Assembly: GCA_963677975.1 (NCBI GenBank)
Contig: OY782677.1
Location: 1,665,821 to 1,729,820 of the forward strand
DNA length: 64,000 nucleotides
Reading direction: 5' to 3'
Origin: Bacteroidales bacterium
GTDB taxonomy: Bacteria > Bacteroidota > Bacteroidia > Bacteroidales > UBA4417
Shown: positions 4,887 to 64,000 of the stretch, piece after piece
Layout: every line of letters begins with the position of its first letter
Numbering within the stretch: position 1 is the stretch's first letter
Made by a program: the position numbers and the translations under genes
The notes under the pieces: generated by a model
What the model was told of the DNA's origin: nothing
Databases searched by the model: none
What the model saw: the letters and a program-made list of their open reading frames with translations, nothing else

Positions 4887-4889
4887 TTC

Positions 4890-15323: not shown

Positions 15324-15363
15324 TATTTATCGTTTTTGTACAACACGGGTAGAGAAACATTTT

Positions 15364-15398: not shown

Positions 15399-15449
15399 CC
15401 CTTTATTATTGCGCCTTTCTAGCCCCGAATCAGGCCTGACTGCCCATGT

Positions 15450-15905: not shown

Positions 15906-15981
15906 ACAACGATTTTGTGCAAAGTTAAAAACATATATTCAAATTGCTACCCCGGCACGCAAATGATCAGGCTATTGCCAG

Positions 15982-48817: not shown

Positions 48818-51433
48818 CTAGAAGATTATGGCGTATGATAGTTTTATAAGAAAATCGTTCTGCGGGAATGTGCTGTGCAGTTCTTTCGTATAGTCGTTAA
48901 ACATGAATTGACCTTCGGATCCATCGGTTGTTCGTCCCTGCGACCAAACAAGAAAAAATGTAGAACCGGGTTTGTATTCCCATCTGAAAACCAGGTTCGA
49001 CCTGTATTGCAGGAAATGAAAGTTGGGGTCTTCAAAACTGAAATCAGTGCCGTTGCCATCGGTGTCAACATCAAACTCTTCGGTCTCGGAATTGTATTGA
49101 ATTTCATTTGGTGTATATACATGGAAACGGTCATTATAATCGGCGGCGTCCGGATCGGTAATAGTTTTAAATTTCGAATAGTTGCCTGCGAAAAAGAAGG
49201 GTTGCCCGTAATATTGAATCGACATATCGGGTGTTATCCCGACATTAATCCTTGCTGAAACCGAAAACTGTTCACTATAAAGGTATGCCATAATATAATT
49301 GTCGGGAGCATCACCTTCAATGGTGGTTACATATTGCAGGTTATCCTGTCCGATGGAATAAGAGGGAGCAAGGGAAATGGAAACCGTATTTACGGGTTTA
49401 TAGGTTATATTCATTTCTACAAGCGAAAATGTTGAATTGTCGTGTCCGCTCCAGCGGTTCATAAGGAAAACACCGGCCTGAAGTTTTTTCCGTTGGTCGC
49501 TGTCGAATCCTATCCTGTAGTTAAACCCTGGAGGGGAATTTAGCATGGGTCCGCCGCGGAGGTCATAGGCTGACAGTGAGTTGCCCTGAAGGTTGAACCC
49601 GGTATATACGGAATAGTAATTTTTGAACTGCATGTTGCCGTTCATTTCCAGCCCTTTGTATATGCTTTGCCCGGCAAAATTCCAGCCGGTATAAATATCG
49701 CCGCCAAAGTTGAAATTATTATAAAAGCTCTTAGGCTGCCACTCGTTATATCCGAACCATGCAACCTGCTGAATATTATCAGCCTGCTGCATAAATCCCA
49801 GGTCGTTGAAATCGAGCCCTGGCGACGACCATGTTACCCATGACAATATTCTCAGGTGACCACCTCCGAATTTACCGAATTCCAGGGTTCCTCCGTGCCC
49901 GCTCAGGCTTGTGCGTGAGCTGTCGACTTCAAAGTGTGTGGCATCAGGCCGTTGAAAATTATGTGTTGAAGTGGTTTGTAGTTCGGTTATTGATTCGGTA
50001 GTGCCGTATATGCTGCTGAAGATTCCTTTTACTGTGAAGAAGTAGTTCTTGTTTTTCCAGTAATGTGTGAGATTTGCACCTCCTGTATAAGCTGAGGCAG
50101 GTAAAGTCAGAAAATTGTCATCGTCGATTTTGCGGTTAGTAGCAGTAAAAAGACCTCCAACAACTGTATTTCCTTTATCAATATCCTGTTCTACCCGGGC
50201 TACCATGTAATTTGTAAGAGGTTCGACCGGGTAATCGCTCCGGACACCATTTTTGTCAATTTCGGCAACTTCACGCTGAGTAATTGACTCAAGAATACCG
50301 ATTGAAGTGCCATTTCGGGTTTTGCCGGATAATTTAAAAGCACCAAGTATACTTGTATTTTCAGGGATATCGGCATACTCATTATCAGCGAGATCCGGCT
50401 CAAAATGGGGGGAGCGCCCTATACGCCGGGAATAAAACATACCTGTACTCGAACCGTCGCCATCACCAGAGGTCATGCGGAAATTAAAGATATTGCGCCC
50501 TTCGATAAAAAACGGCCTTTTCTCAGGGTAAAATGATTCGAATGCCGAAAGGTTAACCTGCGAAGGATCGGCTTCAACCTGGCCAAAGTCGGGGTTCACA
50601 GAAAAGTTAAGTGTAAGGTCGTTGGTTATACTGACCTTCCCATCGAGTCCTGCCGAAAATGATGTTTCTTTACCTGTGGCAAACGGGTTTCCTTCTTCTT
50701 TTTCGGAAAGGGAGTATTTGCTAAGTGCAAACGGGAATAGTTCAATGTCTTTCTTTGGAGAGATATTGCTGATTCCCTCAAGAGTTCCGAAATCGCTTAC
50801 CATTTTGTTAGCACTCTTGTGTAATGGGCTCCACAACGATAATTCGCTTTTGCGGTATACAAACCGTGCTACTTCAACTCCCCATTTATAACTATCCTTT
50901 TTGGTAAACCGGAGCTGCGAAAGCGGGATCCTCATCTCGGTATACCAGCCCATGGCATCCGAACTTGTTTCAACATACCAGATCGGATCCCAGCTATCAT
51001 CGTCATTCACATCATTCGTAAAGATCATATCGACCTTTGAACCTGCTGCGGTAACCGTGAATCCAAATGCGGTAAGTTTATCCTCGTAACTGTCTAATAT
51101 TACTCCAACCCAATCGCCATCACCGTCATCGCGCCGGGTAAGCCGCTTGTTGATTTTATCAGGTTCGGTGTCAAATGCTTTTATTGCAACATAAATATTG
51201 TTGTCATCATAAAGTATCGCAAATTGCGTGTTCTGGCTTGGGAGCGAGTCTTCGTAAGGTTCGAATTGTACGAAATCACCACTCCATACGGCATGGTCCC
51301 AACAGCCATCATCGAGTTTGCCATCGAGTACAGGAGGTTTTGGATTTATCTTATGGGTAGTATAGGATTTGCTTTGAGTAAAAGCTAAGAAAGGCAGAAA
51401 TATAAGAATTAAAAAAGTTAGGCGTGCAGGCAT
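48818..51433 (-). CDS. CBM9-like N-terminal domain + DUF5916-type large beta-rich protein (secreted/outer membrane)
   Basis: Signal peptide. ...PPVLDGKLDDGCWDHAVWSGDFVQFEPYE... (CBM9-like), a long beta-rich body, and C-terminal ...FRWEYKPGSTFFLVWSQGRT...DFLIKLSYAIIF. Confidence 0.65.
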   Translation of the reverse strand: MPARLTFLILIFLPFLAFTQSKSYTTHKINPKPPVLDGKLDDGCWDHAVWSGDFVQFEPYEDSLPSQNTQFAILYDDNNIYVAIKAFDTEPDKINKRLTRRDDGDGDWVGVILDSYEDKLTAFGFTVTAAGSKVDMIFTNDVNDDDSWDPIWYVETSSDAMGWYTEMRIPLSQLRFTKKDSYKWGVEVARFVYRKSELSLWSPLHKSANKMVSDFGTLEGISNISPKKDIELFPFALSKYSLSEKEEGNPFATGKETSFSAGLDGKVSITNDLTLNFSVNPDFGQVEADPSQVNLSAFESFYPEKRPFFIEGRNIFNFRMTSGDGDGSSTGMFYSRRIGRSPHFEPDLADNEYADIPENTSILGAFKLSGKTRNGTSIGILESITQREVAEIDKNGVRSDYPVEPLTNYMVARVEQDIDKGNTVVGGLFTATNRKIDDDNFLTLPASAYTGGANLTHYWKNKNYFFTVKGIFSSIYGTTESITELQTTSTHNFQRPDATHFEVDSSRTSLSGHGGTLEFGKFGGGHLRILSWVTWSSPGLDFNDLGFMQQADNIQQVAWFGYNEWQPKSFYNNFNFGGDIYTGWNFAGQSIYKGLEMNGNMQFKNYYSVYTGFNLQGNSLSAYDLRGGPMLNSPPGFNYRIGFDSDQRKKLQAGVFLMNRWSGHDNSTFSLVEMNITYKPVNTVSISLAPSYSIGQDNLQYVTTIEGDAPDNYIMAYLYSEQFSVSARINVGITPDMSIQYYGQPFFFAGNYSKFKTITDPDAADYNDRFHVYTPNEIQYNSETEEFDVDTDGNGTDFSFEDPNFHFLQYRSNLVFRWEYKPGSTFFLVWSQGRTTDGSEGQFMFNDYTKELHSTFPQNDFLIKLSYAIIF

Positions 51434-51810: not shown

Positions 51811-52965
51811 ATGAGGGAGAAAATACTGAATATACGCAAAATCGAACTGATCGTTTTTATTGTGATCTGGATGGTTGTGTTTTCGATTCCCTTTTTCAGC
51901 CAGAGAATTGAAAATGATATCAACTGGAGCAAAGTTACAGGTGAATGGATCAGGATGTGTTCCTTCCTTGCCGTTTTTTTACTAAACACGTTATTGTTTG
52001 TACCGAAATTTCTTTTACAGAAAAAGTATCGCTCCTATTTTATATACACCACTTTATCGATACTTATAATTATCGGAATTACGGTTTCACTAAGGCTTTT
52101 CATGACTCCTCCCCAGCCGCTGGAAATGCCGCCCATGGATTTAGGGCCCGGGATGCCGCCCATGGAATTAGGGCCCGGGATGCCGCCTCCGCAGGGTTTC
52201 AAGATGGCTGACCCTCCCGAACAGAGATCAATACTGATGCATTTTATCGATAACCTGATTCTTGCCATTCTTGTAGTTGGATTGAGTACTGCGTTCAAAC
52301 TGTTATCGGAATGGCTCAGGGAGGAAAACTGGCGCAAAGACCTGGAGAAGGAACAACTCAGGACCGAGTTGGCCCTGCTCAGGCACCAGGTAAGCCCGCA
52401 TTTTTTCATGAATACACTCAATAATATTCACGCACTTATCGATATTAATTCCGAAGATGCCAAGGATACGATAATACAACTTTCGACCATGATGCGGTAC
52501 CTTCTTTATGATACAGCCCACGGGAAAACCACGCTTAAAAAAGAAATTAATTTCATCGAAAGCTATATGACCCTGATGAAATTGCGTTTCCCCAAGGAAG
52601 TGGCCGTTGTACTCGATATACCTGACGAGATTCGCGATATTGAAATCCCGCCAATGTTGTTTATTTCGTTCCTCGAAAATGCGTTCAAACATGGCGTTAG
52701 TTACAAGGCCGAATCGTATGTTTCGATGAAGATTGAACAGGTTGGCAACCGTTTAAAATGTTCCGTTAAAAACAGTAAACATAACAATATTGATAGTCTT
52801 GACAGCAGCTATTCGGGGATCGGATTGACCAATATCAAGAAAAGCCTTAAACTGCTCTTCGGCAACGATTATAGCCTTCATATTCATGAAACCGAAAAAG
52901 AATTTGAGGTTCAGTTGTCAATCCCGGTTCATGAAATAGTTCAGACTGTTAAAACTGATATATAG
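51811..52965 (+). CDS. LytS/YehU-type sensor histidine kinase
   Basis: N-terminal TM helices, a Pro/Met/Gly repeat linker, the His_kinase motif LRHQVSPHFFMNTLNNIHAL, and an HATPase region (FLENAFKHG...GIGLTN). Confidence 0.88.
   Translation: MREKILNIRKIELIVFIVIWMVVFSIPFFSQRIENDINWSKVTGEWIRMCSFLAVFLLNTLLFVPKFLLQKKYRSYFIYTTLSILIIIGITVSLRLFMTPPQPLEMPPMDLGPGMPPMELGPGMPPPQGFKMADPPEQRSILMHFIDNLILAILVVGLSTAFKLLSEWLREENWRKDLEKEQLRTELALLRHQVSPHFFMNTLNNIHALIDINSEDAKDTIIQLSTMMRYLLYDTAHGKTTLKKEINFIESYMTLMKLRFPKEVAVVLDIPDEIRDIEIPPMLFISFLENAFKHGVSYKAESYVSMKIEQVGNRLKCSVKNSKHNNIDSLDSSYSGIGLTNIKKSLKLLFGNDYSLHIHETEKEFEVQLSIPVHEIVQTVKTDI
52126..52195 (+). repeat. in-frame 27-nt tandem repeat encoding MPPMDLGPG / MPPMELGPG / MPPPQG
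   Basis: atgccgcccatggatttagggcccggg atgccgcccatggaattagggcccggg atgccgcctccgcag, read directly inside the kinase gene. Confidence 0.85.
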
Positions 52966-53079: not shown

Positions 53080-53799
53080 ATGAAACTAAAGTGCCTGGCT
53101 ATTGACGACGAGCCTCTTGCATTAAAACAGATCAACTCATACATTGAAAAGACATCATTTCTCGAAGTTATGTCACTGTGCAGCAGTGCTTTTGAAGCTA
53201 TGGAGTATTTGTCGGCGAATGAGGTTGACCTTATGTTTGTTGATATCAATATGCCCGACCTCAACGGAATGGATTTTGTAAAGTCGCTGGCCGTTAAGCC
53301 CCAGGTGATTTTTACAACTGCCTACAGCGAATATGCACTCGAAGGATTCCAGGTGAATGCGCTTGATTATATCCTGAAACCGGTTAGTTATGCCGCTTTC
53401 CTGAAATCGGTCAACAAGGCAAAAATCTGGTTCGAACTCAGCCAGCGTCAGCCAGAAATCTTGAAATCCAATAAGGACAGCCTTTTTGTAAAATCGGAGT
53501 ACAAAATGGTACGTATATTCTTATCAGAGATTAAATATATCGAAAGTTCGAACGAGTACATTCTTATTCATCTTACCACCGGGGAACCTGTTTCGACGCT
53601 TATACGGCTTAAAGTAATGGAAGAACAGCTTCCCGCCGATATTTTTATGCGGGTACATCGTTCGTTTATTGTAAACCTCAACCAGGTGAAAGTGATCGAA
53701 AGGAACCGGATTGTTTTTGATAATAAAATTTACATACCCGTTGGGGAGCAGTACAAGGATAATTTCCAGGCTTTTGTTGATAAAACCTTCCTGGTTTGA
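53080..53799 (+). CDS. LytR/AlgR-family response regulator (LytTR DNA-binding domain)
   Basis: Receiver domain (CLAIDDEPLAL...LMFVDINMPDLNG) plus a LytTR domain (IKYIESSNEYILIHL...RVHRSFIVNL). Confidence 0.92.
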   Translation: MKLKCLAIDDEPLALKQINSYIEKTSFLEVMSLCSSAFEAMEYLSANEVDLMFVDINMPDLNGMDFVKSLAVKPQVIFTTAYSEYALEGFQVNALDYILKPVSYAAFLKSVNKAKIWFELSQRQPEILKSNKDSLFVKSEYKMVRIFLSEIKYIESSNEYILIHLTTGEPVSTLIRLKVMEEQLPADIFMRVHRSFIVNLNQVKVIERNRIVFDNKIYIPVGEQYKDNFQAFVDKTFLV

Positions 53800-53821: not shown

Positions 53822-54847
53822 TTAAGCTTTCCGCGAATACCATTTCACAATCTTTTCGTATGCGAATGTAAGCAATACCGTTGCAGCAAAAATAATCCCG
53901 GTCCAAATGGGGAATGTCCCTATAGTCTGAGTTTGGTAAAATACAGTTGCAAGATTCCCTATAATCAGCCATTGGATCACATAAAACGCAGTTATGTTTC
54001 TCCCTATATTGCAAAAGAAATTTGCAGTTTGAGATTGAAGGAACTGCTTTACTGCCAGGCGGATAACCAGCACCCACAAGAATGTTAATCCTATAGCCCA
54101 GAAAATAAACAAGAAAGTGTGATGGTAATAGGAGGGAAGATCAATAGTTGTATTCACTCCCCAACGGAAAAAAATCAGCACTGGTACTGCAATGGAAACG
54201 ATAAGTGCCCTTGCGGCTTTTTTATTTTTCAGAATAAATGATGTTACCTGATTTTCGAAACGGGCAAAAATAAATCCTGCCAGCGGATAGGCCAGCCATG
54301 GGAAAAGTGGGAAATACGACCAGGAATAATGGCCGGCTATAAATGGCAAAACGAAATAATGATTCTCTAAAGTAAGTTTTTCGTTTAATGTTCCGGTTAT
54401 ACTGCCAACAACAATGAACAGGGCCATTGCAGCCCATTCCTGCCATTTCCCGAAAAGTTTAAAAAAAGCAAGGATAATTATACTTAGGCCAGCAAGATAA
54501 AAGATATCGATGCCAAACAGGTATTGAAGCGGGTTATGTGGCCAGCCAGAATAGAATATATTGAGCAGGAGATGTAGGTTGAGCCCGAAATTAAGCAGGA
54601 AGCCGAGAATAAATATCCTGATTCCGCGAAAAACATTTTCGGAAATGCTGTGTTTGTTAAGGGCAATAAAATAACCCATTACCACCATGAAAACCACAGC
54701 AGCAAATGGCCCCCCGAGGAAAAGGGAAGCTTCCCCGACCAAGGTTCCCTTACCCGCAGGATCAATAAATAGCTCAGTTATATGTATCTGAACCATAAGG
54801 AAAGCTGCCAGCCCTTTGAGTATGTCAGGCAGTAGAAATCGTTTCAT
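53822..54847 (-). CDS. DUF1624 / heparan-alpha-glucosaminide N-acetyltransferase-like membrane acyltransferase
   Basis: N-terminus MKRFLLPDILKGLAAFLMVQIHITELF is typical of the family. About 10 TM. Confidence 0.65.
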   Translation of the reverse strand: MKRFLLPDILKGLAAFLMVQIHITELFIDPAGKGTLVGEASLFLGGPFAAVVFMVVMGYFIALNKHSISENVFRGIRIFILGFLLNFGLNLHLLLNIFYSGWPHNPLQYLFGIDIFYLAGLSIIILAFFKLFGKWQEWAAMALFIVVGSITGTLNEKLTLENHYFVLPFIAGHYSWSYFPLFPWLAYPLAGFIFARFENQVTSFILKNKKAARALIVSIAVPVLIFFRWGVNTTIDLPSYYHHTFLFIFWAIGLTFLWVLVIRLAVKQFLQSQTANFFCNIGRNITAFYVIQWLIIGNLATVFYQTQTIGTFPIWTGIIFAATVLLTFAYEKIVKWYSRKA

Positions 54848-55068
54848 TTTTTATGACTCTTGAACAGGGTTATCCGGCTATATGCTCAAAAATACGATTA
54901 TTCTGCATATATCATCTTATGATTCTTTGTTTGAAATATTAGTTCGTAATATTCAATTAAGCTCAAAAAATCAAATTCAACCGGCTCGGTTTACAAGCCA
55001 TTTTACCCTTTCTACTTAATAGGAGGGGCTTTTGATTGAAATCGTTTTTACAGGTTAGCAGCTCGAAT

Positions 55069-55076
55069 TATCTTTG
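55069..55076 (+). promoter_or_regulatory. -7 box (TAtcTTTG), with TTTG at 55031-55034 as a possible -33 element
   Basis: Lies 63 nt upstream of the PqqD-like ATG. The leader contains the hairpin gacag-N11-ctgtc (55091-55110). Confidence 0.55.
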
Positions 55077-55138
55077 ACAAATAATAAAAAGACAGAAATA
55101 TTTTCCTGTCACGTCAATAAACCGTAAAAACCTGCATT

Positions 55139-55378
55139 ATGAAAATACGTAAAAATATAGCTACCAGCGACGAAGGTTTTATATTCAACCCGGCCACCGG
55201 TGATTCGTTCTCAACTAACACTATAGGCGCAGAAATTATTGCTTTGCTGAAGGACGATAAGAGCACGGCAGAAATTAAAGCCGCTGTCTGTGCAAAATAC
55301 TTTGTTGAGGAAATTCAGTTTGAGAAGGATCTTGACGACTTTGTCGCACAACTGAAGGAATCGTCCATCATGGAGTAA
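55139..55378 (+). CDS. PqqD-family protein (RiPP-recognition-element-like peptide chaperone)
   Basis: 79 aa. ...EGFIFNPATGDSFSTNTIGAEIIALLKDDKSTAEIKAAVCAKYFVEEIQFEKDLDDFVAQLKESSI follows the PqqD pattern (beta-strands, then G-x-x-I-W/L-x-L-L...E-I, then 'D...F...L'). Confidence 0.7.
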   Translation: MKIRKNIATSDEGFIFNPATGDSFSTNTIGAEIIALLKDDKSTAEIKAAVCAKYFVEEIQFEKDLDDFVAQLKESSIME

Positions 55379-55498
55379 TCAATCCGGCCACCAAGGTCCT
55401 TTTCGATTGAGGAACTATGGGGTATTTTATGGGTTGGTTTATTTTTACCATTAAAAAGCCAGGTATATTCAGGTAATAAACTGCAAAAATCACTTTCA

Positions 55499-56302
55499 TT
55501 GAAACAACTTATTTTCACTTTCACATTGCTGCTTTTGCTTGTTTTTCGCGCACAGGCACAATTTAATCTCGAACACACATATTCAGGAGTGTCGGCAGCC
55601 TATGTAAATCTTCCGGTTGAGGGCTATAAATACTATGTAATGGATGTAACCAACAGCCAGTGCCGGCTTTACAATAATGATCATTCGCTGTGGAAAACCA
55701 TTAACCTGAGCCTCCCTGAAGGCTATTACCTATATGATTTACAATACGTTACCGAGAATCTTTTCAACACCGACAACGCGATTGAATTTATGTATGTTTC
55801 GTATACCTACAATACAACCCTGGCATATTACACATACGACACCCGCATAGCTAACGAAAATGGGACTGTTCTTCTGGATATTCCAGGCGGCGGTTATAAC
55901 TACATTTATCCGGCACTTACCGGCTCAAAATTATTCAGCTGGCAATATGATTACTCTGTTTCACCTTCAACTGTGAATACGTTGGTTTATTCCATTCCCG
56001 GTAAGGTAAGCAGCAACGCAGTCCCCGAATATCCTGCTTCAGAGCAGGTTCCGATGCGGGCTGCATTCCCTAACCCGGCCGGCAGTGAAGTTACAATTCC
56101 GTATACATTACCTTCACAGGTTAAGCAGGCTGAGCTGAAGCTCTTTACATTGAACGGAGTTTTACTGAAAGCCTACCCTGTCGACCATACATTCGAAACC
56201 ATAAAACTGCAGACCGGTGGTCTTATGCCGGGAACCTATTTGTACAGGATCGAATCGGGAACGTACATGTCGGAAACACTAAAGCTGGTTGTCGGCAGGT
56301 AG
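55499..56302 (+). CDS. secreted Tyr-rich protein with T9SS C-terminal sorting domain
   Basis: (TTG)MKQLIFTFTLLLLLVFRAQAQ signal peptide. The C-terminus FPNPAGSEVTIPY...LKLFTLNGVLLKAY...GTYLYRIESG...LKLVVGR is a Por secretion tail. No in-frame ATG is available. Confidence 0.72.
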   Translation: MKQLIFTFTLLLLLVFRAQAQFNLEHTYSGVSAAYVNLPVEGYKYYVMDVTNSQCRLYNNDHSLWKTINLSLPEGYYLYDLQYVTENLFNTDNAIEFMYVSYTYNTTLAYYTYDTRIANENGTVLLDIPGGGYNYIYPALTGSKLFSWQYDYSVSPSTVNTLVYSIPGKVSSNAVPEYPASEQVPMRAAFPNPAGSEVTIPYTLPSQVKQAELKLFTLNGVLLKAYPVDHTFETIKLQTGGLMPGTYLYRIESGTYMSETLKLVVGR

Positions 56303-56379
56303 AAATAAACATACAGCATCCCGTAAATCAGAAATAAACTTCGGATATAGTAGTTCGGTGAATTTTAAAATATTTGGAA

Positions 56380-57456
56380 ATGAAAACAGAAATCAGTAAT
56401 ACGGACCAGCAGGGTAAAATGAAACTTGTTATTGCGGTTACGGGGCTGAATGCGATCGACAGTCCGGGTCCCGGTGTGGCAGTAATCCGTGCCATACGCG
56501 AATGTCCTGATTTTGAAGTGCGTATTATAGGTCTTTCGTACGAATCACTCGAGCCAGGCTCCTACATGCACGACCTGGTCGATAAAACATACCTGATTCC
56601 ATACCCATCGGCCGGCACCGATACACTTATGGCCAGGCTCATGTATATTCATGAGAAAGAGAAACTTAACCTGGTTATTCCCAATTTTGATGCCGAGCTC
56701 TTCAATTTTATCAAATTATGGGACAAACTCCTTGCTGCCGGCATACATTCGTTTCTGCCTGAACTGGAGCAATTCGAGGCACGCGACAAGATCAAACTTT
56801 ATGAATTTGGCGAAAAGCATGGTTTGCTTATTCCGGCTGATAAAATCATTTACCATTCAGGCGACATTGACAAATCTGCCAAGGAAATCGGCTTCCCAAT
56901 GGTGATAAAAGGCAAATTTTATGATGCCATTATTGCAAATACTCTAGAGCAGGCACACAAAGCATTTTATAAAATCCAGGCTAAATGGGGGCTCCCGATC
57001 ATAATACAGCAGTTTATAAATGGTACCGAAATTAATGTTGCTGCCCTGGGCGATGGCGAAGGCAACGCGATAAGCATAGTCCCAATGCGTAAGCTGTATA
57101 TTACCGATAAAGGGAAGGCCTGGTCGGGAATTACGATCGAAGATTCGGCCTACGTGGAACTGGCCCGTAAATTTATTAAAGCTACCAAATGGCGCGGTGG
57201 CTGCGAACTCGAGATTATGCAGTCCGACGACGGCAAACCTTATATTATGGAAGTAAACCCAAGGTTCCCGGCATGGATTTATTTAACAGCCGCAGCCGGG
57301 CAAAACCAGCCGGCCTCACTTGTTAAGATGGCGATGGGACAAAAGGTTCAGCCTTTTACAGAGTATAAAGTCGGGACACTGTTTATCCGCTATGCCTGGG
57401 ACCTGATTACCGATATAAGCGAATTCCAGCGGATGTCGGGAACAGGAGAACTATAA
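56380..57456 (+). CDS. ATP-grasp-fold ligase (carboxylate-amine/peptide ligase type)
   Basis: ...FPMVIKGKF...IIIQQFINGTEINVAALGDGEG...CELEIMQSDDGKPYIMEVNPRFPAW... shows the ATP-grasp core with the E-x-N Mg/ATP site. The start is uncertain (TTG 56374, ATG 56380 or ATG 56419). Confidence 0.75.
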   Translation: MKTEISNTDQQGKMKLVIAVTGLNAIDSPGPGVAVIRAIRECPDFEVRIIGLSYESLEPGSYMHDLVDKTYLIPYPSAGTDTLMARLMYIHEKEKLNLVIPNFDAELFNFIKLWDKLLAAGIHSFLPELEQFEARDKIKLYEFGEKHGLLIPADKIIYHSGDIDKSAKEIGFPMVIKGKFYDAIIANTLEQAHKAFYKIQAKWGLPIIIQQFINGTEINVAALGDGEGNAISIVPMRKLYITDKGKAWSGITIEDSAYVELARKFIKATKWRGGCELEIMQSDDGKPYIMEVNPRFPAWIYLTAAAGQNQPASLVKMAMGQKVQPFTEYKVGTLFIRYAWDLITDISEFQRMSGTGEL

Positions 57457-57644
57457 TTCAAATCAGTGAAAAGGCCAATTAGTCAAAATAATAAGTAAAA
57501 GAGATATTACCATATACTGGAACGCGAAGGAAAGGGTTAATCGTTTTAAAATACTGGATTATAGCCAGCTACGGACTTCATGCTTCCGACTTGCTGTCTT
57601 ATAGAGGAATACAATGAAAATCAGAAAAAGTAAATCAGTACAAC

Positions 57645-58991
57645 ATGGAAAAGATACGTTATGAAAGGCCGATAATTAAGAAAATGAGTACAGGATTGAT
57701 GAATAAATTCGGTACAAGAGCCGAACAAACACCTGTAACTCACATCGACAATGTACCGGTTAAAACCCTTTTATCGGAATATGGTTCGCCCTTATTTGTT
57801 TTATCGGAAAAGCAGATCAGGCATAACATTCTTAACGCTTCACGGATTTTTAAAACTCGATATCCAAAGGTTCAGTTTGCATGGTCGTATAAAACCAATT
57901 ACATGGATGCTGTGTGCCGGATCTTTCACCAGGAAGGTTCATGGGCGGAGGTCGTGTCGGGATTCGAGTACGATAAAGCACTTAGCAACGGTGTACCAGG
58001 GAATAAGATTATTTTCAACGGTCCTGATAAAAGCGATGAACAGCTTATTACCGCTTCGCGAAACAATTCGCTGATCCATATCGATCATTTTGATGAACTT
58101 TACACTTTGATAAGGCTGAGTGACGAATTTGATCTCAAACCACGAGTAGCTATACGGGTAAATATGGATACCGGTATTTATCCCAAATGGGACAGGTTCG
58201 GGTTTAATTATGAGAATGGACAGGCCTGGAATGCCATAACCCGCATCATTAATTCAACAAATCTCGACCTGGTCGGGCTGCATTGCCATATTGGCACATT
58301 TATGCTTTCGCCCTCGGCCTACGCAGTTGCTGCAACCAAGCTTTGTGAACTTACAAAAACGGTAAAGGAGAAGTTCAATAAAGTGCTTCAGTATATCGAT
58401 CTGGGCGGCGGTTTTCCTTCGACAAATACTCTTAAGGGATCCTATCTGCCGGGTTCCGATACGGTGCCTTCGATCGACCAGTTCGCCGATGCCATTACCG
58501 ACGTTATACTCGGTTTTGGTTTCCGGCAGGAAGAATTGCCCCTGCTTATCCTCGAATCAGGAAGAGTTCTGATTGATGATGCAGGCTTTTTACTCGGAAC
58601 GGTTGTGACTACAAAACGACTTTCGGATGGCCGCCGGGCAACCATTCTTGATTTTGGTGTGAATACTCTTTTTACAGCATTTTGGTACGATCACCAGGTA
58701 AGTACAACAAAATCCTATGGCCAGCATACCGAGGAAATGATAATGTACGGACCGCTCTGCATGAATATTGATGTTGTTCGCGAAAGCATCACTATGCCCC
58801 TTATCGAAAAAGGCGACCAGGTGGTGGTTCACAAAGTCGGTGCATACAATATGACCCAATGGATGCAGTTCATAACTTTGCGTCCCAATATAGTACTTAT
58901 CGACAGGGAGAGTAAGACGCATATAATCCGTAAAGCGGAAACAGTCGAAAGCATGCAGTCGGCTGAGTTGATTCCTGCCTATTTAAAATAA
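57645..58991 (+). CDS. PLP-dependent decarboxylase, Orn/DAP/Arg (group IV, alanine-racemase fold) family
   Basis: PLP-lysine motif FAWSYKTNY, HCHIGT, phosphate-binding IDLGGGFP, ESGRVLI, and a C-terminal beta-barrel region (YGPLCMNIDV...GAYN). Confidence 0.82.
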   Translation: MEKIRYERPIIKKMSTGLMNKFGTRAEQTPVTHIDNVPVKTLLSEYGSPLFVLSEKQIRHNILNASRIFKTRYPKVQFAWSYKTNYMDAVCRIFHQEGSWAEVVSGFEYDKALSNGVPGNKIIFNGPDKSDEQLITASRNNSLIHIDHFDELYTLIRLSDEFDLKPRVAIRVNMDTGIYPKWDRFGFNYENGQAWNAITRIINSTNLDLVGLHCHIGTFMLSPSAYAVAATKLCELTKTVKEKFNKVLQYIDLGGGFPSTNTLKGSYLPGSDTVPSIDQFADAITDVILGFGFRQEELPLLILESGRVLIDDAGFLLGTVVTTKRLSDGRRATILDFGVNTLFTAFWYDHQVSTTKSYGQHTEEMIMYGPLCMNIDVVRESITMPLIEKGDQVVVHKVGAYNMTQWMQFITLRPNIVLIDRESKTHIIRKAETVESMQSAELIPAYLK

Positions 58992-59072
58992 TAAGTTAAA
59001 TCAACAATTTGAAGTGCCGGGAATTGTAATTTAGATTAATTTACTGCCTTGTTCAGCAACAGGAATACAAGT

Positions 59073-61283
59073 ATGAATTTCAAGCGATATATTAATACTT
59101 TCGGTACAACAGTTCTGCCTGCAACGCTGAACTCATATTCGGCTGTGTTTTTCTTCAACAACAAGGTACTATCAACACTCATATTGCTGGTAAGTTTCTT
59201 CAATTTTTATGCCGGGCTGAGTGGACTTATAGCTGTGTTGTTTACCGTACTCCTGGCAAATTCAATGGGGCTCGATAAAATTCAGCTTAAAAGCGGAGTT
59301 TATACTTTCAATGCGTTGCTTACCGGCATTGGGATGGGAACATTTTTTGAACCTGGCTACGTTTTCTTTAGCCTGTTGTTGTTAGCGGCTTTACTTTCGC
59401 TTATACTATCAGTTACAATGAGCGGATGGCTGGGAAAAAGCGGTTTGCCATTCCTGAGTATGCCTTTTGTATTTTCATTCTGGTTTATACTTCTGCCGGC
59501 ATCGCAATTTGAGAACCTGGGATTAACCCAGCGAAATATATACTGGATGAATGAAATGTATGCCATAGGCGGGAGTACTATGCTTAATTTCTTTCAAACC
59601 ATCGATCAGTTGCCCATCAATAAAATGGTTGATATTTACCTGAGGTCGATGAGCTCGATATTTTTCCAGAATAACCTCATTACAGGTTTTCTTGTTACAA
59701 TAACTATACTGCTTAGTTCACGGATTGCATTTTCTCTCTCCATTGTCGGTTTTCTTTCGGCTTATCTCTTTGCCCAGTTTTCGGGTTCGGAGGCAGCGAG
59801 CATTACTTATTACAACATCGGGGCTAATTATATTATGGTTGCCATTGCAGTAGGCGGTTTTTTTGTGATTCCCTCTGGTTACTCATACTTATGGACGGTT
59901 TTGCTGGTACCGCTCACATCGCTGGTGCTGCTTTTTATGAGTAAGTTATTCGGATTTATCCAGTTGCCGGTGTTTTCGCTTCCATTTTCAGTAGTAGTCA
60001 TTCTTTTTGTTTATTTCCTTCGGCTCCGGGTAAGCCCGTCAAAACTTAAACTGACTCCGCGACAGTACTTTTCGCCCGAAATAAATCTTTATGCCTTTAA
60101 TAATAACCAGGATCGCTTGTCGAATTTCCTTTATTTCCCGCTGTACCTGCCGTTCTGGGGCGAATGGAACGTAACACAGGGGCATGATGGTGAACACACC
60201 CATAAAGGGGATTGGGGCAAGGCTCTCGACTTTATGATCCTCGATGATAAATCAAAATCCTATAGCTCGAAGGGGCAACTCTGTGAGAATTACTACTGTT
60301 ACAATAAACCGGTTGTAGCGGCAGCCGATGGTATTGTTGAAGAAATTGTTGATAATATCGACGACAACGATATCGGAAAGGTGAACACCAGTAACAACTG
60401 GGGCAATACAATCATTATCAGGCACCTGCCCGGGCTTTATACCCAGGTATCGCACCTTAAAAAAGGATCTTTTAAAGTTTCGAAAGGTGATTTTGTAAAA
60501 AGAGGCGATTTGCTTGCTACCTGTGGAAACTCGGGCCGCTCCCCCGAGCCGCATATTCATTTCCAGGTGCAGACAACCCCATTGCTCGGGGCAAAGACGA
60601 TCTTTTACCCTATTGCATATTACGTTCAGAAAGAGAATTCAGGCCAGCAACTACTCCAGTTTGCGGTACCTTCCGAAGGTGATTCTGTTTCCGGTCTTGA
60701 AGTAAACACTCAACTCAGGACTGCCTTTGATATCATGCCCGATACCAGTCTTTCGTACCGCTTTATGAATGAAAACGGCATCGAAATAACCGAGAAATGG
60801 GATGCCTACACCGATGCGTACAACAGCAAGTACCTGTATTGTAAAGAAACCGATTCGAGTGCTTATTATATAAACGATGGCACTATGTTTTATTTCACTT
60901 CTTTTTACGGCGATAAGAAATCACTTCTTTATTATTTCTACCTGTCGGCCTACAAAATACTTATGGCTAATCCTGATTTGTTTATCGTTGAGGATGCTAT
61001 GCCTCTTGATATAATCAGGAATAAAAAACTGAGCATATGGCTCCAGGATTTTATTGCACCATTCTATACCTACATTAAGTTGGGCTATTCAGTTAAAGCT
61101 GAGTCGTCTGATCTGCAGTTCGGAAACAGCATGATGCAACTCGCATCTGAAATTGATTTAATGATATTGGGCAAAACCCGCAACGAAAGCAGAAGTTCTT
61201 TGTTGATACAGGGCAACTGTATAAAAGAATTCAGCTTTGAATCCTCCACTATTACCATAAAAGCCATATGCGTAAGTACATAA
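59073..61283 (+). CDS. fusion protein: urea-transporter-like (UT family) membrane domain + M23 metallopeptidase domain + C-terminal domain of unknown function
   Basis: About 330 aa with ~10 TM helices (LNSYSAVFFFNNKVLSTLILLVSFF..., a UT-like N-terminus). Then HTHKGDWGKALDF...GNTIIIRHLPGLYTQVSHLKKGSFKVSKGDFVKRGDLLATCGNSGRSPEPHIHFQV (M23 HxH motif). I prefer the ATG at 59073 over the TTG at 59049. Confidence 0.72.
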   Translation: MNFKRYINTFGTTVLPATLNSYSAVFFFNNKVLSTLILLVSFFNFYAGLSGLIAVLFTVLLANSMGLDKIQLKSGVYTFNALLTGIGMGTFFEPGYVFFSLLLLAALLSLILSVTMSGWLGKSGLPFLSMPFVFSFWFILLPASQFENLGLTQRNIYWMNEMYAIGGSTMLNFFQTIDQLPINKMVDIYLRSMSSIFFQNNLITGFLVTITILLSSRIAFSLSIVGFLSAYLFAQFSGSEAASITYYNIGANYIMVAIAVGGFFVIPSGYSYLWTVLLVPLTSLVLLFMSKLFGFIQLPVFSLPFSVVVILFVYFLRLRVSPSKLKLTPRQYFSPEINLYAFNNNQDRLSNFLYFPLYLPFWGEWNVTQGHDGEHTHKGDWGKALDFMILDDKSKSYSSKGQLCENYYCYNKPVVAAADGIVEEIVDNIDDNDIGKVNTSNNWGNTIIIRHLPGLYTQVSHLKKGSFKVSKGDFVKRGDLLATCGNSGRSPEPHIHFQVQTTPLLGAKTIFYPIAYYVQKENSGQQLLQFAVPSEGDSVSGLEVNTQLRTAFDIMPDTSLSYRFMNENGIEITEKWDAYTDAYNSKYLYCKETDSSAYYINDGTMFYFTSFYGDKKSLLYYFYLSAYKILMANPDLFIVEDAMPLDIIRNKKLSIWLQDFIAPFYTYIKLGYSVKAESSDLQFGNSMMQLASEIDLMILGKTRNESRSSLLIQGNCIKEFSFESSTITIKAICVST

Positions 61284-62410
61284 TATTCCTGTTCCTTTTA
61301 TATTCCATAGCTTTGAAAGCCAATGCCGCCCTCACATATGCAGAGGTCGACAGTATAACGTATCATTGCTACCTTACCGCCGACTGGGATAATCTGATTG
61401 TGACCGGCGAACAGGCCATAAAGGAGAAAATTGATTTCAAAACACTGAGGCAACGCCTGGGTTATGCATTCTTTATGAAGGGAAATTATTACGTTTCACA
61501 GAAACATTACGAAAAAGCCCTTGAGTTTGATAAATATGATGCCGGAACGCGGGAATACCTATACTACTGTGCATTAAATACCGGCAACGAGACTTCGATG
61601 CGGTATCATGCTGCAAGACTTACCCTGGAACAAAAGGAAGCGTTCCGGATTAAAGCCTTTAATCCCTTGGCAGCTATCGATCTTGAGTTTAATTATAAAT
61701 CAAATACCTACGATAAACGTTCCAACCCGACCTATTTTCGCCTGGGAGTGAGCAGCTACCTGGGAAGCCGTTTCTCATTGTACCAGTCCATTTCAATGTA
61801 TAATCAAATGATCGACACATTTCCCGTTCAGCAACCTGATTATTTTGCCATGCTGAAATACTCGGTTACACCAGCCACAACATTCACCGTAGCTTACCAT
61901 TACCTGAATACGAATATTGACGGGTATAAGTACCCGGGTAACCTGGTTTTCGGCCAACTTTCAACCCGCATAAGCCGGTTTGAGATAGGTGTGAACGGAT
62001 CCTCTTTTAAATACGATCTTGGTAAGTTCAACCAGGTGGGTGCTCATGCAAAGGTTACACTGCCCGGCAAACAAGGCATTTATCTCAAAACTTCGCTTAA
62101 CGAAATGATTGAATCTTCGAATAACCGCCTGATATTTTCACAAACAGCCGGAAGCCGCATTTTTAAATCTCTTTGGGGTGAAGGGCAGTTGGATGTAGGT
62201 AACATTCAGAACTATTGCGATCACAATGCACTTTATGTTTATAACTCGCTCGATCCAACTGTTTTCAGGGTAGGAGCTTCACTTTTCTGGTCCGTCAATA
62301 AGAAAATTACCCTATATGGCAATTACCTGTACGATTCGAAACAAATCGGACAAACTACTGATCAATATATTCAACATTCATTTTTAACCGGAATTATATG
62401 GAAACTTTAA
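61268..62410 (+). CDS. secreted protein: N-terminal TPR-like repeats + predicted beta-barrel C-terminal domain
   Basis: Signal peptide MRKYIIFLFLLYSIALKANA. TPR-like YYVSQKHYEKALEFD. From about residue 130, alternating beta-strand pattern ending ...SFLTGIIWKL. It overlaps the upstream gene by 16 nt. Confidence 0.55.
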   Translation: MRKYIIFLFLLYSIALKANAALTYAEVDSITYHCYLTADWDNLIVTGEQAIKEKIDFKTLRQRLGYAFFMKGNYYVSQKHYEKALEFDKYDAGTREYLYYCALNTGNETSMRYHAARLTLEQKEAFRIKAFNPLAAIDLEFNYKSNTYDKRSNPTYFRLGVSSYLGSRFSLYQSISMYNQMIDTFPVQQPDYFAMLKYSVTPATTFTVAYHYLNTNIDGYKYPGNLVFGQLSTRISRFEIGVNGSSFKYDLGKFNQVGAHAKVTLPGKQGIYLKTSLNEMIESSNNRLIFSQTAGSRIFKSLWGEGQLDVGNIQNYCDHNALYVYNSLDPTVFRVGASLFWSVNKKITLYGNYLYDSKQIGQTTDQYIQHSFLTGIIWKL

Positions 62411-63018
62411 AAAAGATTTTAGTCTCAGTGGCCTTTGTCCTGTTATCAGGATACATAATGGCTCAAACTGCGGCTGTTACGCAGGCTGCATTTGTAAAAA
62501 GTTATGAAGCCGAAAAAGATGGCAATTACTCCACAGCCATTTCGTCGCTGAAGACAGTTTACCAGGCCGACAGTTATGTACTGAATGTCCGTTTAGGATG
62601 GCTCAGTTACCTTGCCAAACAGTACAACGAATCGATAAAATACTACGAAAAGTCAATTTCGCTGAAACCCTATGCAATCGAAGCCCGCTTTGGATATATA
62701 AAACCACTTAGTGCTATTGAGAACTGGGAAAAGGTAAAAGCCAATTACCTGGAAATTCTGAAGATTGATCCGCAGAACACCGTTGCAAACTACTGGCTGG
62801 GTGTAATTTACTATAACCGTAAAGACTACGCGAATGCTACAAAACTTTTCGAAAAAGTAGTAAATCTGTACCCTCTGGATTACGATTCGGTAATTATGCT
62901 TGCCTGGTCGAAACTTAATACCGGAAAACCGGCTGACGCAAAAGTGCTTTTTAACCATGCACTAATTCTCAGGCCCGATGATAGTTCAGCGCTCAGCGGA
63001 CTGAAACTGATAAAATAA
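62398..63018 (+). CDS. secreted tetratricopeptide-repeat protein
   Basis: Signal peptide ...LLSGYIMAQT. TPR motifs (YNESIKYYEKSISLKPYAIEARFG, ANYWLGVIYYNRKDYANATKLFEKVVNLYPLDYDS). It overlaps the upstream gene by 13 nt. Confidence 0.75.
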   Translation: METLKKILVSVAFVLLSGYIMAQTAAVTQAAFVKSYEAEKDGNYSTAISSLKTVYQADSYVLNVRLGWLSYLAKQYNESIKYYEKSISLKPYAIEARFGYIKPLSAIENWEKVKANYLEILKIDPQNTVANYWLGVIYYNRKDYANATKLFEKVVNLYPLDYDSVIMLAWSKLNTGKPADAKVLFNHALILRPDDSSALSGLKLIK

Positions 63019-63039
63019 GTGAAGTGATTGTAAATATTA

Positions 63040-63076
63040 ATTCCCGGAATGCCTGCTTTCCGGGAATTTGTTTTTT
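63040..63076. terminator. strong hairpin terminator (attcccggaa-N8-ttccgggaat + ttgtttttt)
   Basis: Perfect 10-bp stem read directly. It closes the 55-63 kb cluster and sits between convergent genes. Confidence 0.85.
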
Positions 63077-63101
63077 GGCTATATTGTTTTTTAGCAAAAC
63101 T

Positions 63102-64000
63102 CTAGAATACAACCAGGTACGAGATTTTAAGCATAAAATCATTCCTGGGCTTAGTTTGCCAGAGGTCGGTTAAATAGTCATCAAAAACCTCTCCGCTTCC
63201 ATTCTCGTAATTGGTGCGTCCCTGTGCCCAAACCAGGTAAATCGATGAACCTGTTTTGTATTCCCAGCGGAAAACCATATTTGAGCGGTATTGAATAAAA
63301 TGGAAATCGGGATTTGAGAATGAAAAATCCTGAATACCGTTTTGATCCTCATCCACACTAAATTTGTTGGTTTCTTCATTCAGCGAAATCTCTTCTGTTG
63401 TGAACTGATGAAAGCGGTTGGTGAATTGGTCCGCCTTCGGATCGGTGATCCTTTTGTAATCAGTGTATTTCCCTTCGAAAATATAAGGCTGTGCATAATA
63501 TTGTATTGAAAGCTCAGGAGTCAGGCTCACATTAATCCTTGCCGATAGATCGAATACCTGCCTGCTGAGGCTGCCCATTATGTAACGGGTATTATTCTCC
63601 ACTTTAGGTGCTGTTACAAACTGTAGTTGGCTGAAACCACTGGTGAATTGTGGTATCAGGGAAAGCAGCAGCGTTTTTACAGGTTTATATGTTATTTCGC
63701 AGGTATACCTGTGGTTATTGTAATACCCATCCTTCCCATAGTGATGTGAAGTACTGAAGCGTAATGCAAGTTTTTTGCGTGTGTCGCTTTCGGCATAGGC
63801 ATTGAAATTAAATACCGGAGGGAGCAGCAGGGCAGGTCCTCCCCAAAGTTCACCGCGTGAAAGTGTTGTACCGGCATAATTAATACCAGCCCCTGTGGTA
63901 TAGTATTTTTTAAACTGCCCGTTTGCATTCAGGTCGAATCCTTTATTTATGGTTTCACCGCCGAAATCCCATGTAATGAATTCGGTAAAATTAGCCGACG
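63102..64000 (-). CDS. DUF5916-type protein, C-terminal ~299 aa (paralog of 48818-51433; 5' end beyond window)
   Basis: I extended the frame upstream of the track's GTG at 63602 by hand. It stays open to 64000 (...GGETINKGFDLNANGQFKKYYTTGAGINYAGTTLSRGELWGGPALL...ITYKPVKT...) and is collinear with the other copy. The C-terminus is ...FRWEYKTGSSIYLVWAQGRT...DFMLKISYLVVF. Confidence 0.7.
   Translation of the reverse strand, partial: SANFTEFITWDFGGETINKGFDLNANGQFKKYYTTGAGINYAGTTLSRGELWGGPALLLPPVFNFNAYAESDTRKKLALRFSTSHHYGKDGYYNNHRYTCEITYKPVKTLLLSLIPQFTSGFSQLQFVTAPKVENNTRYIMGSLSRQVFDLSARINVSLTPELSIQYYAQPYIFEGKYTDYKRITDPKADQFTNRFHQFTTEEISLNEETNKFSVDEDQNGIQDFSFSNPDFHFIQYRSNMVFRWEYKTGSSIYLVWAQGRTNYENGSGEVFDDYLTDLWQTKPRNDFMLKISYLVVF

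Follow-up and report, generated by a model that had tools for sequence, protein, structure and literature searches.

A conserved gene module that joins a PqqD-like protein, an ATP-grasp ligase and a PLP decarboxylase to a UT::M23 fusion and an outer-membrane TPR-barrel in Bacteroidales and other phyla

Results

Gene content of the locus and conservation of a six-gene core

The locus studied here lies in a 64-kb stretch of DNA from a Bacteroidales bacterium (contig OY782677.1), the whole of which is referred to as the window. A first-pass annotation of the window had described seven co-directional genes, and seven same-strand open reading frames (ORFs) were confirmed at 55069-63076. They encode, in this order, a PqqD-like protein, a protein with a type IX secretion system (T9SS) sorting domain, an ATP-grasp ligase, a pyridoxal phosphate (PLP) decarboxylase, a fusion of a urea transporter-type (UT) channel domain with an M23 peptidase (UT::M23), an outer-membrane protein with tetratricopeptide repeat (TPR)-like helices and a beta-barrel, and a separate TPR protein. 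The domains first proposed for these genes agreed with the Pfam and NCBIfam searches and, for the sixth of the seven genes, with the AlphaFold model. The catalytic motifs were read directly in the sequence and are intact, namely EVNPR in the ATP-grasp protein, WSYKTNY, GGGF and ESGR in the decarboxylase, and PHIHFQ in the M23 domain. The last three genes overlap as originally noted, by 16 nt at 61268-61283 and by 13 nt at 62398-62410, and these overlaps are kept in nearly every related locus.

About 160 loci were compared, 80 from genomes and 80 from metagenomes. The genome scan, with one genome per species and the UT::M23 alignment as query, recovered loci exclusively from Bacteroidales metagenome-assembled genomes (MAGs), with representatives of Paludibacter, Prolixibacteraceae, Lentimicrobiaceae, Mariniphaga and Tangfeifania. 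The metagenome scan was seeded with distant UT::M23 members, and core genes were sought by profile hidden Markov models. The genes for the PqqD-like protein, the ATP-grasp ligase, the decarboxylase, UT::M23, the barrel and the TPR protein were all present, in the same order, in 49 of the 51 well-flanked Bacteroidales genome loci; the gaps between them were often only ~4-80 nt, and the −13 and −16 nt overlaps were conserved. In the well-flanked metagenome loci, the PqqD, ATP-grasp, decarboxylase, UT::M23 and TPR genes were found in 27 out of 30, with a recognisable barrel in 18 of these 27. Some distant loci in which no barrel was recognised carried instead a single TPR + outer-membrane protein (OMP)-barrel-like ORF upstream of the PqqD gene. 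Exact-sequence look-ups placed some of the metagenome loci in Nannocystaceae, Desulfobacterales, Latescibacterota, 'Ca. Zophobacter' and Chitinophagaceae. The module thus recurs in Myxococcota, Desulfobacterota and Latescibacterota, at ~30% UT::M23 identity and with a partly changed gene order.

These data define a six-gene core (PqqD-like protein, ATP-grasp ligase, decarboxylase, UT::M23, TPR-barrel and TPR protein) that is a conserved module in at least four phyla. The permuted gene order in distant loci suggests that the linkage is functional and not merely inherited, and the flanking genes vary by lineage while the module stays. The proposal of a seven-gene cluster therefore held as regards a conserved unit, since the tabulated neighbourhoods of the homologues showed very strong synteny, and was revised as regards its exact boundaries: the core comprises six genes, the T9SS gene is an accessory, and a regulator pair upstream has to be included in Bacteroidales. 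In one well-flanked metagenome locus (L131, 10025-14342) the UT::M23, barrel and TPR genes were found with no PqqD, ATP-grasp or decarboxylase gene in the 10 kb upstream. The envelope half of the module can therefore exist without the enzyme half.

Transcription signals

A TAtcTTTG promoter box at 55069-55076 and a 10-bp hairpin terminator at 63040-63076 had been proposed as the limits of the cluster. The box (TATCTTTG) is present, but the frequency of the motif alone would be put down to chance, with 71 matches to TAnnTTTG in the window versus 66.9 ± 7.7 expected. The promoter region (55008-55076, plus strand) consists of sequence blocks at 55008-55018 and 55031-55048 followed by the box, and in 11 related loci the box and both upstream blocks are invariant or nearly so, whereas the leader 3′ of the box is divergent. 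Because of this invariance despite a divergent leader, the box at 55069-55076 is probably a genuine promoter element. The terminator was upheld with a slightly longer stem, as an intrinsic terminator at 63039-63078 (plus strand) with an 11-bp stem (63039-63068), an 8-nt loop and a T-run.

The 3′-terminal part of the decarboxylase gene contains, at 58873-58927, a further box (TAACTTTG) together with a near-consensus sigma-70-like pair (TCGACA-16-TATAAT, 11/12 matches). These elements may constitute an internal promoter for the envelope half of the module, ahead of UT::M23. No riboswitch or leader RNA, such as a lysine riboswitch before the decarboxylase gene, was detected with Rfam at E ≤ 1, which gave one chance-level match only.

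The PqqD-like protein and the ATP-grasp ligase

The first core gene (55139-55378, plus strand) encodes a 79-aa PqqD-family protein, that is, a discrete peptide chaperone resembling the recognition element (RRE) of pathways to ribosomally made peptides that are modified after translation (RiPPs). It scored 40.8 bits with PF05402 (gathering score 23.4), and the canonical GF(I/V)F..P.TG.S(F/Y)..N motif of PqqD/RRE domains is conserved across phyla. The nearest NCBIfam models were those of lasso B1 chaperones, with scores of 22.6-30.9 that are below the cut-offs of 70-80. In essentially all loci the ATP-grasp gene directly follows the PqqD gene, often at a distance of 4 nt or with an overlap, and the PqqD/ATP-grasp overlaps are conserved.

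The second core gene (56380-57456, plus strand; the start at 56380 is the most likely one from homologues and gene calls) encodes a 358-aa ATP-grasp ligase that was assigned through ATP-grasp_3/ATPgrasp_Ter and NCBIfam models to the PRK12767 'carbamoyl-phosphate-synthase-like' (CPS-like) group. EVNPR and ~150 other positions are invariant in 36 orthologues. The protein is not placed in a housekeeping clade: its scores were far below the cut-offs of the models for Ddl (37.5 vs 243), RimK (23.3 vs 143), PurD (18.3 vs 288) and CPSase (28.2 vs 1027), and only CPS-like models were matched. No graspetide-maturase model was among the 17 NCBIfam matches. The best sequence relatives in the PDB are remote (2pn1, biotin carboxylases and Ddl), and the neighbourhoods of relatives in Streptomyces, found in a plasmid collection, were uninformative. 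BtrJ, from the butirosin pathway, is a member of the CPS-like ATP-grasp clade (PMC4431377). The PqqD-like protein, the ligase and the decarboxylase are all without a signal peptide.

The decarboxylase

The third core gene (57645-58991, plus strand) encodes a 448-aa PLP decarboxylase of the alanine-racemase fold, with Orn_Arg_deC_N and Orn_DAP_Arg_deC domains. Its closest solved relative is the N-citrylornithine decarboxylase FigC/FslC (7kh2; 1e-61), and an archaeal diaminopimelate decarboxylase (DAPDC) was matched at 5e-42. The score with the LysA model TIGR01048 was 217.8, below the cut-off of 297.9. The Cys loop reads CMNID, versus CESxD in DAPDC, and thus has Met after the catalytic Cys as in FigC, whereas the corresponding residue is acidic in ornithine decarboxylase (ODC), arginine decarboxylase (ADC) and DAPDC (PMC7857480, the source of all residue roles given here). 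Furthermore, a Thr occupies the position of the carboxylate-binding Arg of DAPDC (R343 in MjDAPDC), and the acidic residues that bind basic substrates are absent. The equivalents of FigC T327 and Y331 are kept, while T330 is replaced by Trp and H357 by Ile. By score, Cys loop and missing diaminopimelate (DAP)-binding Arg, the enzyme is classed as FigC/FslC-like and not as an orthologous LysA.

The GPLCMNID loop and the GVNxLFT[SA]FWYxH helix were essentially invariant in 123 sequences from all lineages. This invariance of the pocket loops suggests a single substrate for all lineages, one that is not free DAP and not a basic amino acid in free form. Enzymes of the FigC clade (FigC, SbnH, AcsE, MccE and BtrK) act on amino acids that are already conjugated, and decarboxylases of clade 2 typically belong to the pathways of specialised metabolites, siderophores among them (PMC7857480). 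BtrK structures were also detectable relatives (~1e-20). The cluster had first been read as making an amine by decarboxylation and then ligating it. The enzyme families behind both activities were borne out, but the order was not: because the pocket is FigC-like, the sequence suggests that ligation first, followed by decarboxylation of the conjugated amino acid, is better supported than release of a free amine prior to ligation.

The UT::M23 fusion

The fourth core gene (59073-61283, plus strand), which most likely starts at the ATG at 59073, encodes a protein of 736 aa, as in all homologues. It comprises a UT-type channel domain with 10 transmembrane (TM) segments (~59121-60017), a linker with a conserved QxxSPExNLY motif between the UT and M23 domains, an M23 zinc peptidase domain (~60135-60608) and an orphan beta-rich C-terminal domain (CTD; 60609-61280). 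The UT domain scored 172 bits with PF03253 over 290 of 292 profile positions and aligned with residues 24-314, i.e. the full length, of the Desulfovibrio urea channel dvUT, both LPxxxxPF motifs being present; the score with the yut equivalog was 117 vs a cut-off of 274.6. The M23 domain scored 60 bits with PF01551, and its zinc-binding and catalytic positions (H, D, H and HxH) stay invariant in sequences of 25-37% identity. Foldseek searches with the fusion model matched dvUT/UT-B on the one hand and Csd1/2, LytM and lysostaphin on the other; these matches covered the UT and M23 parts only. The CTD, corresponding to the last ~220 residues, was confidently modelled by AlphaFold as a beta-rich fold, with no match in Pfam and none in the PDB by profile search. 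An exhaustive HMMER search showed that the UT::M23::CTD family has at least 150 full-length representatives of 50%-identity clusters, down to 30% identity. A survey of urea transporters (Biol Direct 2026) lists M23 C-terminal to UT among bacterial architectures, without context, function or topology (PMC12998343).

At 59808-59822 the channel domain reads YNIGANY, so that the second Phe of the pore motif (GFN in dvUT) is Ala in the Bacteroidales clade, and Phe in the wider fusion family (IGFNF). The replacement of Phe by Ala might widen the entrance of the pore.

The M23 domain and the CTD are predicted to be cytoplasmic, for three reasons. UT-B has its termini inside the cell, and in other UT fusions the domains attached C-terminally (ankyrin, EF-hand) are cytosolic ones (PMC12998343). 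Five Lys/Arg residues follow the last TM segment of the UT domain, as the positive-inside rule would have it. Finally, in a fusion of 1305 aa (P0430, from a cluster of 12 sequences, ten of which have 1305 aa) the UT::M23::CTD part is followed by a signal-like hydrophobic segment, a TPR-like region and a barrel-like C-terminus with an OMP-like end motif; P0430 might represent a genuine polyprotein whose signal peptide lies internally, or else a read-through in gene calling. The possibility had been raised that the cluster decorates murein, with M23 as a murein-binding fold. Such a role for the M23 domain is unlikely on the predicted topology, in which it follows an intracellular C-terminus of UT. 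In the plasmid collection, the closest M23 relatives (H1-H10, 35-39% identity) were stand-alone M23 proteins of Thermus, Thermomicrobium and several haloarchaea, with uninformative neighbourhoods; haloarchaea have no murein.

The outer-membrane barrel and the TPR protein

The fifth core gene (61268-62410, plus strand) encodes a 380-aa outer-membrane protein with a signal peptide. AlphaFold modelled it with a predicted local distance difference test (pLDDT) value of 92.7, as an N-terminal TPR-like helical domain (~61337-61642) followed by a 14-strand beta-barrel (~61658-62404). Foldseek matched the model to OmpG, CymA, FadL, AlgE and PgaA, and to the TPR-barrels BcsC and PelB. The protein belongs to an orphan family, none of its 199 homologues having a Pfam domain. 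The sixth core gene (62398-63018, plus strand) encodes a 206-aa periplasmic TPR protein that matched multiple TPR families of Pfam and likewise has a signal peptide, with no lipobox. The pairing of a periplasmic TPR with an outer-membrane barrel, proposed from the sequence at first, was thus confirmed structurally. PgaA and BcsC models were matched far below cut-off, and only by the separate TPR protein.

Regulatory and accessory genes

A LytS/YehU-type histidine kinase (PF06580) is encoded at 51811-52965 (plus strand) and its partner by synteny, a LytTR-family response regulator with Response_reg and LytTR domains, at 53080-53799 (plus strand). In 41 of the 49 genome loci the kinase and regulator genes are located at most 3.8 kb upstream of the PqqD gene, often contiguous with the module (gaps of 14-77 nt). 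The pair belongs to the unit in Bacteroidales only; it is absent from loci of other lineages, where AraC (nine loci), ECF-sigma or MmyB-type regulators are found instead. The kinase has four predicted TM segments, and at 52099-52222 its gene encodes a repetitive Pro/Met/Gly-rich loop (PPMDLGPGMPPMELGPGMPPP) between hydrophobic segments three and four that, by the positive-inside rule, probably faces the periplasm.

An integral-membrane acyltransferase of the Acyl_transf_3/HGSNAT-like type is encoded by Pfam assignment at 53822-54847 (minus strand), and is shared by 12 near relatives of the window locus. Homologues with 34-49% identity are located beside or inside the module in five further loci (L112, L117, L136, L150 and L153), in L136 between the decarboxylase and UT::M23 genes. 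The acyltransferase is thus a recurrent accessory at variable positions and not part of the core. In ~12 Paludibacter-type loci (e.g. L065, 4886-6970) the LytTR and PqqD genes are separated by an inserted gene for a BspA-type leucine-rich-repeat protein of 694 aa, at about the same place as the acyltransferase gene in the window clade.

The second accessory gene of the window (55499-56302, plus strand) encodes the 267-aa secreted protein, with a signal peptide visible in the sequence, a beta-rich N-domain of orphan type and, at the C-terminus, a T9SS sorting domain (Por_Secre_tail PF18962, 33.5 vs a cut-off of 27; TIGR04183, 31.6 vs 23). Its N-domain family was found in 18 of the ~160 loci, and only adjoining the module. 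The gene occupies the gap between the PqqD and ATP-grasp genes in the window clade, is upstream of the PqqD gene in L130, L147, L151 and L160, and is downstream of the TPR gene in L117, L125 and L161. On account of this occurrence of the same family beside distant modules, at other positions, a random insertion was rejected.

Other neighbours are restricted to particular lineages. The regulators and the module are flanked by two paralogous DUF5916/CBM9 genes (Pfam; ~870 aa) on the opposite strand, at 48818-51433 (minus strand) and 63102-64000 (minus strand, running past the edge of the window); the downstream one is kept only in the nearest 14 loci. In 15 loci, all of Prolixibacteraceae (e.g. 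L048, 14111-19851), the TPR gene is followed on the same strand by genes for two M14 carboxypeptidases, an aminotransferase and a short-chain dehydrogenase/reductase, and HAD and aminotransferase genes are present near some loci. In a Nannocystaceae locus (L128), dapA and dapB lie directly upstream of the module (3540-5569), and genes for a class I/II aminotransferase and a CN-hydrolase downstream (14862-16043). The dapA-dapB pair would suggest a link to lysine biosynthesis; it is not conserved elsewhere and was treated as a coincidence, although it deserves mention in view of the descent of the decarboxylase from DAPDC. Unrelated to the module, a 104-aa ORF at 32556-32870 (plus strand) encodes a signal peptide followed by Cys/Lys/Ala-rich repeats (CAKSxAKAGCAK...), and may correspond to a metal-binding secreted protein.

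Discussion

A proposed ligate-then-decarboxylate pathway

The analysis established which genes the module contains and how they are conserved, the domains of the proteins, the intactness of the catalytic residues, the fold of the barrel and the presence of signal peptides; we infer from them a substrate, an order of reactions, a role for M23, a topology, a direction of transport and a type of product. The reading that we favour, to which we give a probability of roughly 0.35, is a cytoplasmic pathway in which a chaperone-held substrate is ligated to an amino acid that is then decarboxylated, followed by release through M23 and export over both membranes. The PqqD-like protein, translationally coupled to the ATP-grasp ligase, would hold a peptide or a peptide-like segment. 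The CPS/BtrJ-type ligase would join an amino acid to it in amide linkage through the side chain, leaving the alpha-amino and alpha-carboxyl groups free, and the FigC/BtrK-like decarboxylase would strip the alpha-carboxylate of the conjugated residue to give a primary amine. This exposed amine could take a second ligation, by analogy with the FigA/FigC and BtrJ/BtrK pairs of rhizoferrin and butirosin biosynthesis, where decarboxylation exposes an amine on which the same ligase acts again (PMC7857480, PMC4431377).

On the cytoplasmic face of the membrane, the M23 domain would cleave or release the product; the fusion of an intact, predicted cytoplasmic M23 to a channel suggests that cleavage is coupled to exit. 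The UT domain would provide the exit, or the product would pass next to it. Transfer over the periplasm and the outer membrane would then fall to the periplasmic TPR protein and the TPR/14-strand barrel, a passage that is suggested by the strict coupling of their genes. In some lineages the membrane acyltransferase might acylate the product, possibly on the exposed amine, and the T9SS-secreted protein would also be associated. Expression would be under lineage-specific regulators, the LytS/LytTR pair in this genome.

The presence of an RRE-like protein implies a peptide segment as at least one of the substrates. Among ORFs of ≥22-25 aa, in the window as well as in the genome and metagenome sets (~160 loci), no conserved precursor or scaffold peptide was found in cis, and the measured intergenic gaps of some operons are no more than 4-77 nt. 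The proposal that RRE logic presents a peptide substrate to the ligase was accordingly retained as regards the PqqD family and left unproven as regards a classical RiPP logic. Since an RRE-like protein implies a peptide and none is encoded in cis, the substrate peptide would be encoded elsewhere or be part of a module protein. As a speculation, the QxxSPExNLY linker of UT::M23 is a candidate for the segment bound by the PqqD-like protein. The full version, in which the RRE chaperone directs the ligase and the FigC-like decarboxylase in assembling an amine-bearing conjugate on a peptide encoded in trans or within the machine (e.g. this linker), with M23 releasing the product on a repurposed urea-channel fold and the TPR/14-strand-barrel pair exporting it, is put forward as a tentative and rather doubtful proposal. 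If true, it would amount to a new type of machine for biosynthesis and export, present in at least four phyla, in which the M23 and UT domains would have roles not described for them before.

Several observations weigh against the favoured reading. Its weakest points are the missing peptide, the narrow UT pore and the predicted topology. A LysW-like role for the PqqD-like protein, as a carrier with the amino acid on a C-terminal Glu, was considered and rejected, as the ..ILE/..LLEE ending is found in Bacteroidales only and the C-termini vary freely elsewhere. The pore of UT channels is too narrow for peptides, which makes export by this domain a weak proposal for anything but a small, neutral product. 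AlphaFold modelled the UT part poorly (pLDDT ~45), and we know of no precedent for a cytoplasmic M23 peptidase. The decarboxylase scored 230 with the FslC model NF041039, below its cut-off of 500. In addition, a distant homologue of the ligase (25% identity), the only one found in an informative context, is located in an exopolysaccharide (EPS) locus of Priestia together with an aminotransferase and a HAD phosphatase. Together with the acyltransferase, whose family (Acyl_transf_3) usually acts on glycans, this homologue points toward a glycan or envelope target.

Alternative explanations

Such a target is central to the first alternative, in which a free amine or diamine is made first and the ATP-grasp enzyme ligates it to a carboxylate of the envelope (a peptidoglycan stem peptide or its precursor, a glycan with uronic acids, or a T9SS anchor), with M23, TPR protein and barrel acting on the envelope. 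The ATP-grasp, M23 and DAPDC-type families are all known for chemistry on peptidoglycan stem peptides, the acyltransferase and T9SS-tail accessories point to the cell surface, HAD and aminotransferase genes lie near some loci, and the EPS locus of the distant ligase homologue has a gene set which we take to resemble that of Campylobacter capsule amidation (Cj1435-Cj1438). Against this stand the FigC-like pocket, without residues for binding free basic amino acids or DAP, and the predicted cytoplasmic position of M23; moreover, the genes conserved with the module include none of glycosyltransferase, Mur or flippase type, and the role of the PqqD-like protein would be left unexplained. We consider this explanation unlikely.

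The module might otherwise secrete a polyamide polymer, made by an iterative ATP-grasp enzyme in the manner of RimK or cyanophycin synthetase, exported by the TPR protein and TPR-barrel and trimmed by M23. The Foldseek alignment with BcsC, PelBC, AlgE and PgaA, the presence of a separate periplasmic TPR protein, the translational coupling of the three envelope genes and the accessory acyltransferases, typical of polymer-modifying systems, all fit this view. However, the barrel has 14 strands and not 16-18, no synthase-like membrane enzyme is present, and the UT fold gives no conduit for a polymer. The chemistry fits poorly as well, as the ligase is outside the RimK and cyanophycin families and the free alpha-amino acid moiety required by a PLP decarboxylase would be present in a backbone polymer at one end at most. 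Polymer secretion is thus improbable.

Equally improbable in our view is a siderophore- or metallophore-like product, or a polyamine-amide metabolite, made by the logic of rhizoferrin, with an acid ligated to Orn, Lys or diaminobutyrate (Dab) and the conjugate then decarboxylated to the diamine amide; no peptide would be involved, and the PqqD-like protein would only assist the ligase as an accessory subunit. In favour of this, the decarboxylase has FigC as its nearest solved relative, siderophores are among the typical products of clade-2 enzymes (PMC7857480), and both a channel-type exporter and a 14-strand barrel would be well matched to a product of small size. On the other hand, the positions that contact citrate in FigC are hydrophobic here (T330 to Trp, H357 to Ile), the module is not accompanied by conserved genes for a TonB-dependent receptor or for uptake (no search was made for iron-regulatory Fur signals), and neither the strict conservation of the PqqD-like protein nor a cytoplasmic M23 would be explained.

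Transport could also run inwards, with barrel, TPR protein and UT domain importing an external compound that M23, ligase and decarboxylase process, for instance in the salvage of peptides or muropeptides. FadL, CymA and OmpG, with 14 strands, are uptake channels, UT channels are bidirectional, a cytoplasmic peptidase at the channel exit would suit processing on entry, and the two M14 carboxypeptidase genes downstream of the module in Prolixibacteraceae would be in line with it. An ATP-consuming ligase and an RRE-like chaperone are nevertheless biosynthetic and not catabolic, the UT pore would not admit peptides, and neither a periplasmic binding protein nor an energised transporter is present, so that uptake is very improbable. 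A chance or inherited adjacency without joint function is effectively refuted by the retention of the set across phyla at ~30% identity, with permuted order, conserved overlaps and wholly different flanks.

Comparison with known systems

The ligate-then-decarboxylate pathway that we favour has a close chemical parallel in the biosynthesis of rhizoferrin by Francisella, where an amide ligation through the side chain, carried out by FslA/FigA, an NRPS-independent siderophore (NIS) synthetase, is followed by decarboxylation by FslC/FigC to a diamine amide. The module decarboxylase shares with FigC, its nearest solved relative, the Met after Cys and the Thr and Tyr of the specificity helix. The two systems differ in the ligase, an ATP-grasp enzyme here with no NIS synthetase in the locus, and in the pocket, which is more hydrophobic in the module owing to Trp and Ile at FigC Thr330 and His357. 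They also differ in transport, since the major facilitator superfamily (MFS) exporter and TonB receptor of rhizoferrin systems are lacking here and the PqqD-like protein, UT::M23 and TPR-barrel have no counterpart there.

The BtrI/BtrJ/BtrK proteins of butirosin biosynthesis offer a similar combination of a small partner protein, an ATP-grasp ligase of the CPS clade and a clade-2 decarboxylase of the alanine-racemase fold that acts on a tethered amino acid (PMC7857480, PMC4431377). There, however, the small protein is a phosphopantetheinylated acyl carrier, whereas a PqqD fold is found here and neither a phosphopantetheinylation site nor thioester chemistry is implied. Moreover, the module has no aminoglycoside genes, and the btr system lacks the membrane components of the module.

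Lasso peptide and other RRE-dependent RiPP pathways (B1, B2, C, D) resemble the module in having a discrete PqqD-family protein beside an enzyme that forms amides at the expense of ATP, together with a protease and a component for export. The differences are the lack of a cis-encoded precursor here, an M23 peptidase versus a transglutaminase-like B2 protease, an ATP-grasp enzyme versus an asparagine-synthetase-like cyclase, and a UT channel versus an ABC exporter; neither transglutaminase-like protease nor asparagine-synthetase-like cyclase domains were found in the locus with Pfam and NCBIfam.

The envelope half recalls the EPS export porins PgaA, BcsC, PelB and AlgK/AlgE, which combine a periplasmic TPR fused to an outer-membrane barrel with an extra TPR protein. 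These barrels have 16-18 strands versus 14 in the module protein, which is much smaller (380 aa), and the module has neither a glycosyltransferase synthase nor a c-di-GMP receptor; no glycosyltransferase is conserved with it in either locus set. Slam/DUF560 proteins of type XI secretion, characterised by an N-terminal TPR and a 14-strand DUF560 barrel, are another possible comparison for the barrel protein. Peptidase-containing ABC transporters (PCATs) also fuse a cytoplasmic peptidase to a membrane exporter and couple cleavage to exit. This likeness is conceptual only; the PCAT peptidase is an N-terminal C39 domain on an ATP-driven ABC exporter, while the module has a C-terminal M23 domain on a passive UT-type channel.

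Significance

Although every protein of the module falls in a known superfamily and a logic in which a product is made and exported is familiar, their combination is undescribed, as had been noted at the outset. Full-text literature searches gave no description of it, and only the UT::M23 fusion was found to be mentioned (PMC12998343). The combination, together with the implied roles of UT and M23, could be categorically new. The database labels of these genes ('urea transporter', 'diaminopimelate decarboxylase', 'carbamoyl-phosphate synthase large subunit', or simply 'hypothetical') are generic or probably misleading, and with at least 150 UT::M23 clusters at 50% identity they amount to a large annotation blind spot.

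The module is common in anaerobic and sediment Bacteroidota and occurs in several other diderm phyla. Its carriers include MAGs assigned to Paludibacter jiangxiensis, Tangfeifania diversioriginum and Mariniphaga, taxa with cultured members, and the proposed pathway would be directly testable if isolates carry the module. If the pathway is true, it would extend the ligate-then-decarboxylate chemistry known from rhizoferrin, butirosin and microcin C to a new family of ligases acting together with an RRE; a cytoplasmic M23 peptidase would for the first time have a function, and the UT fold a role that does not involve urea.

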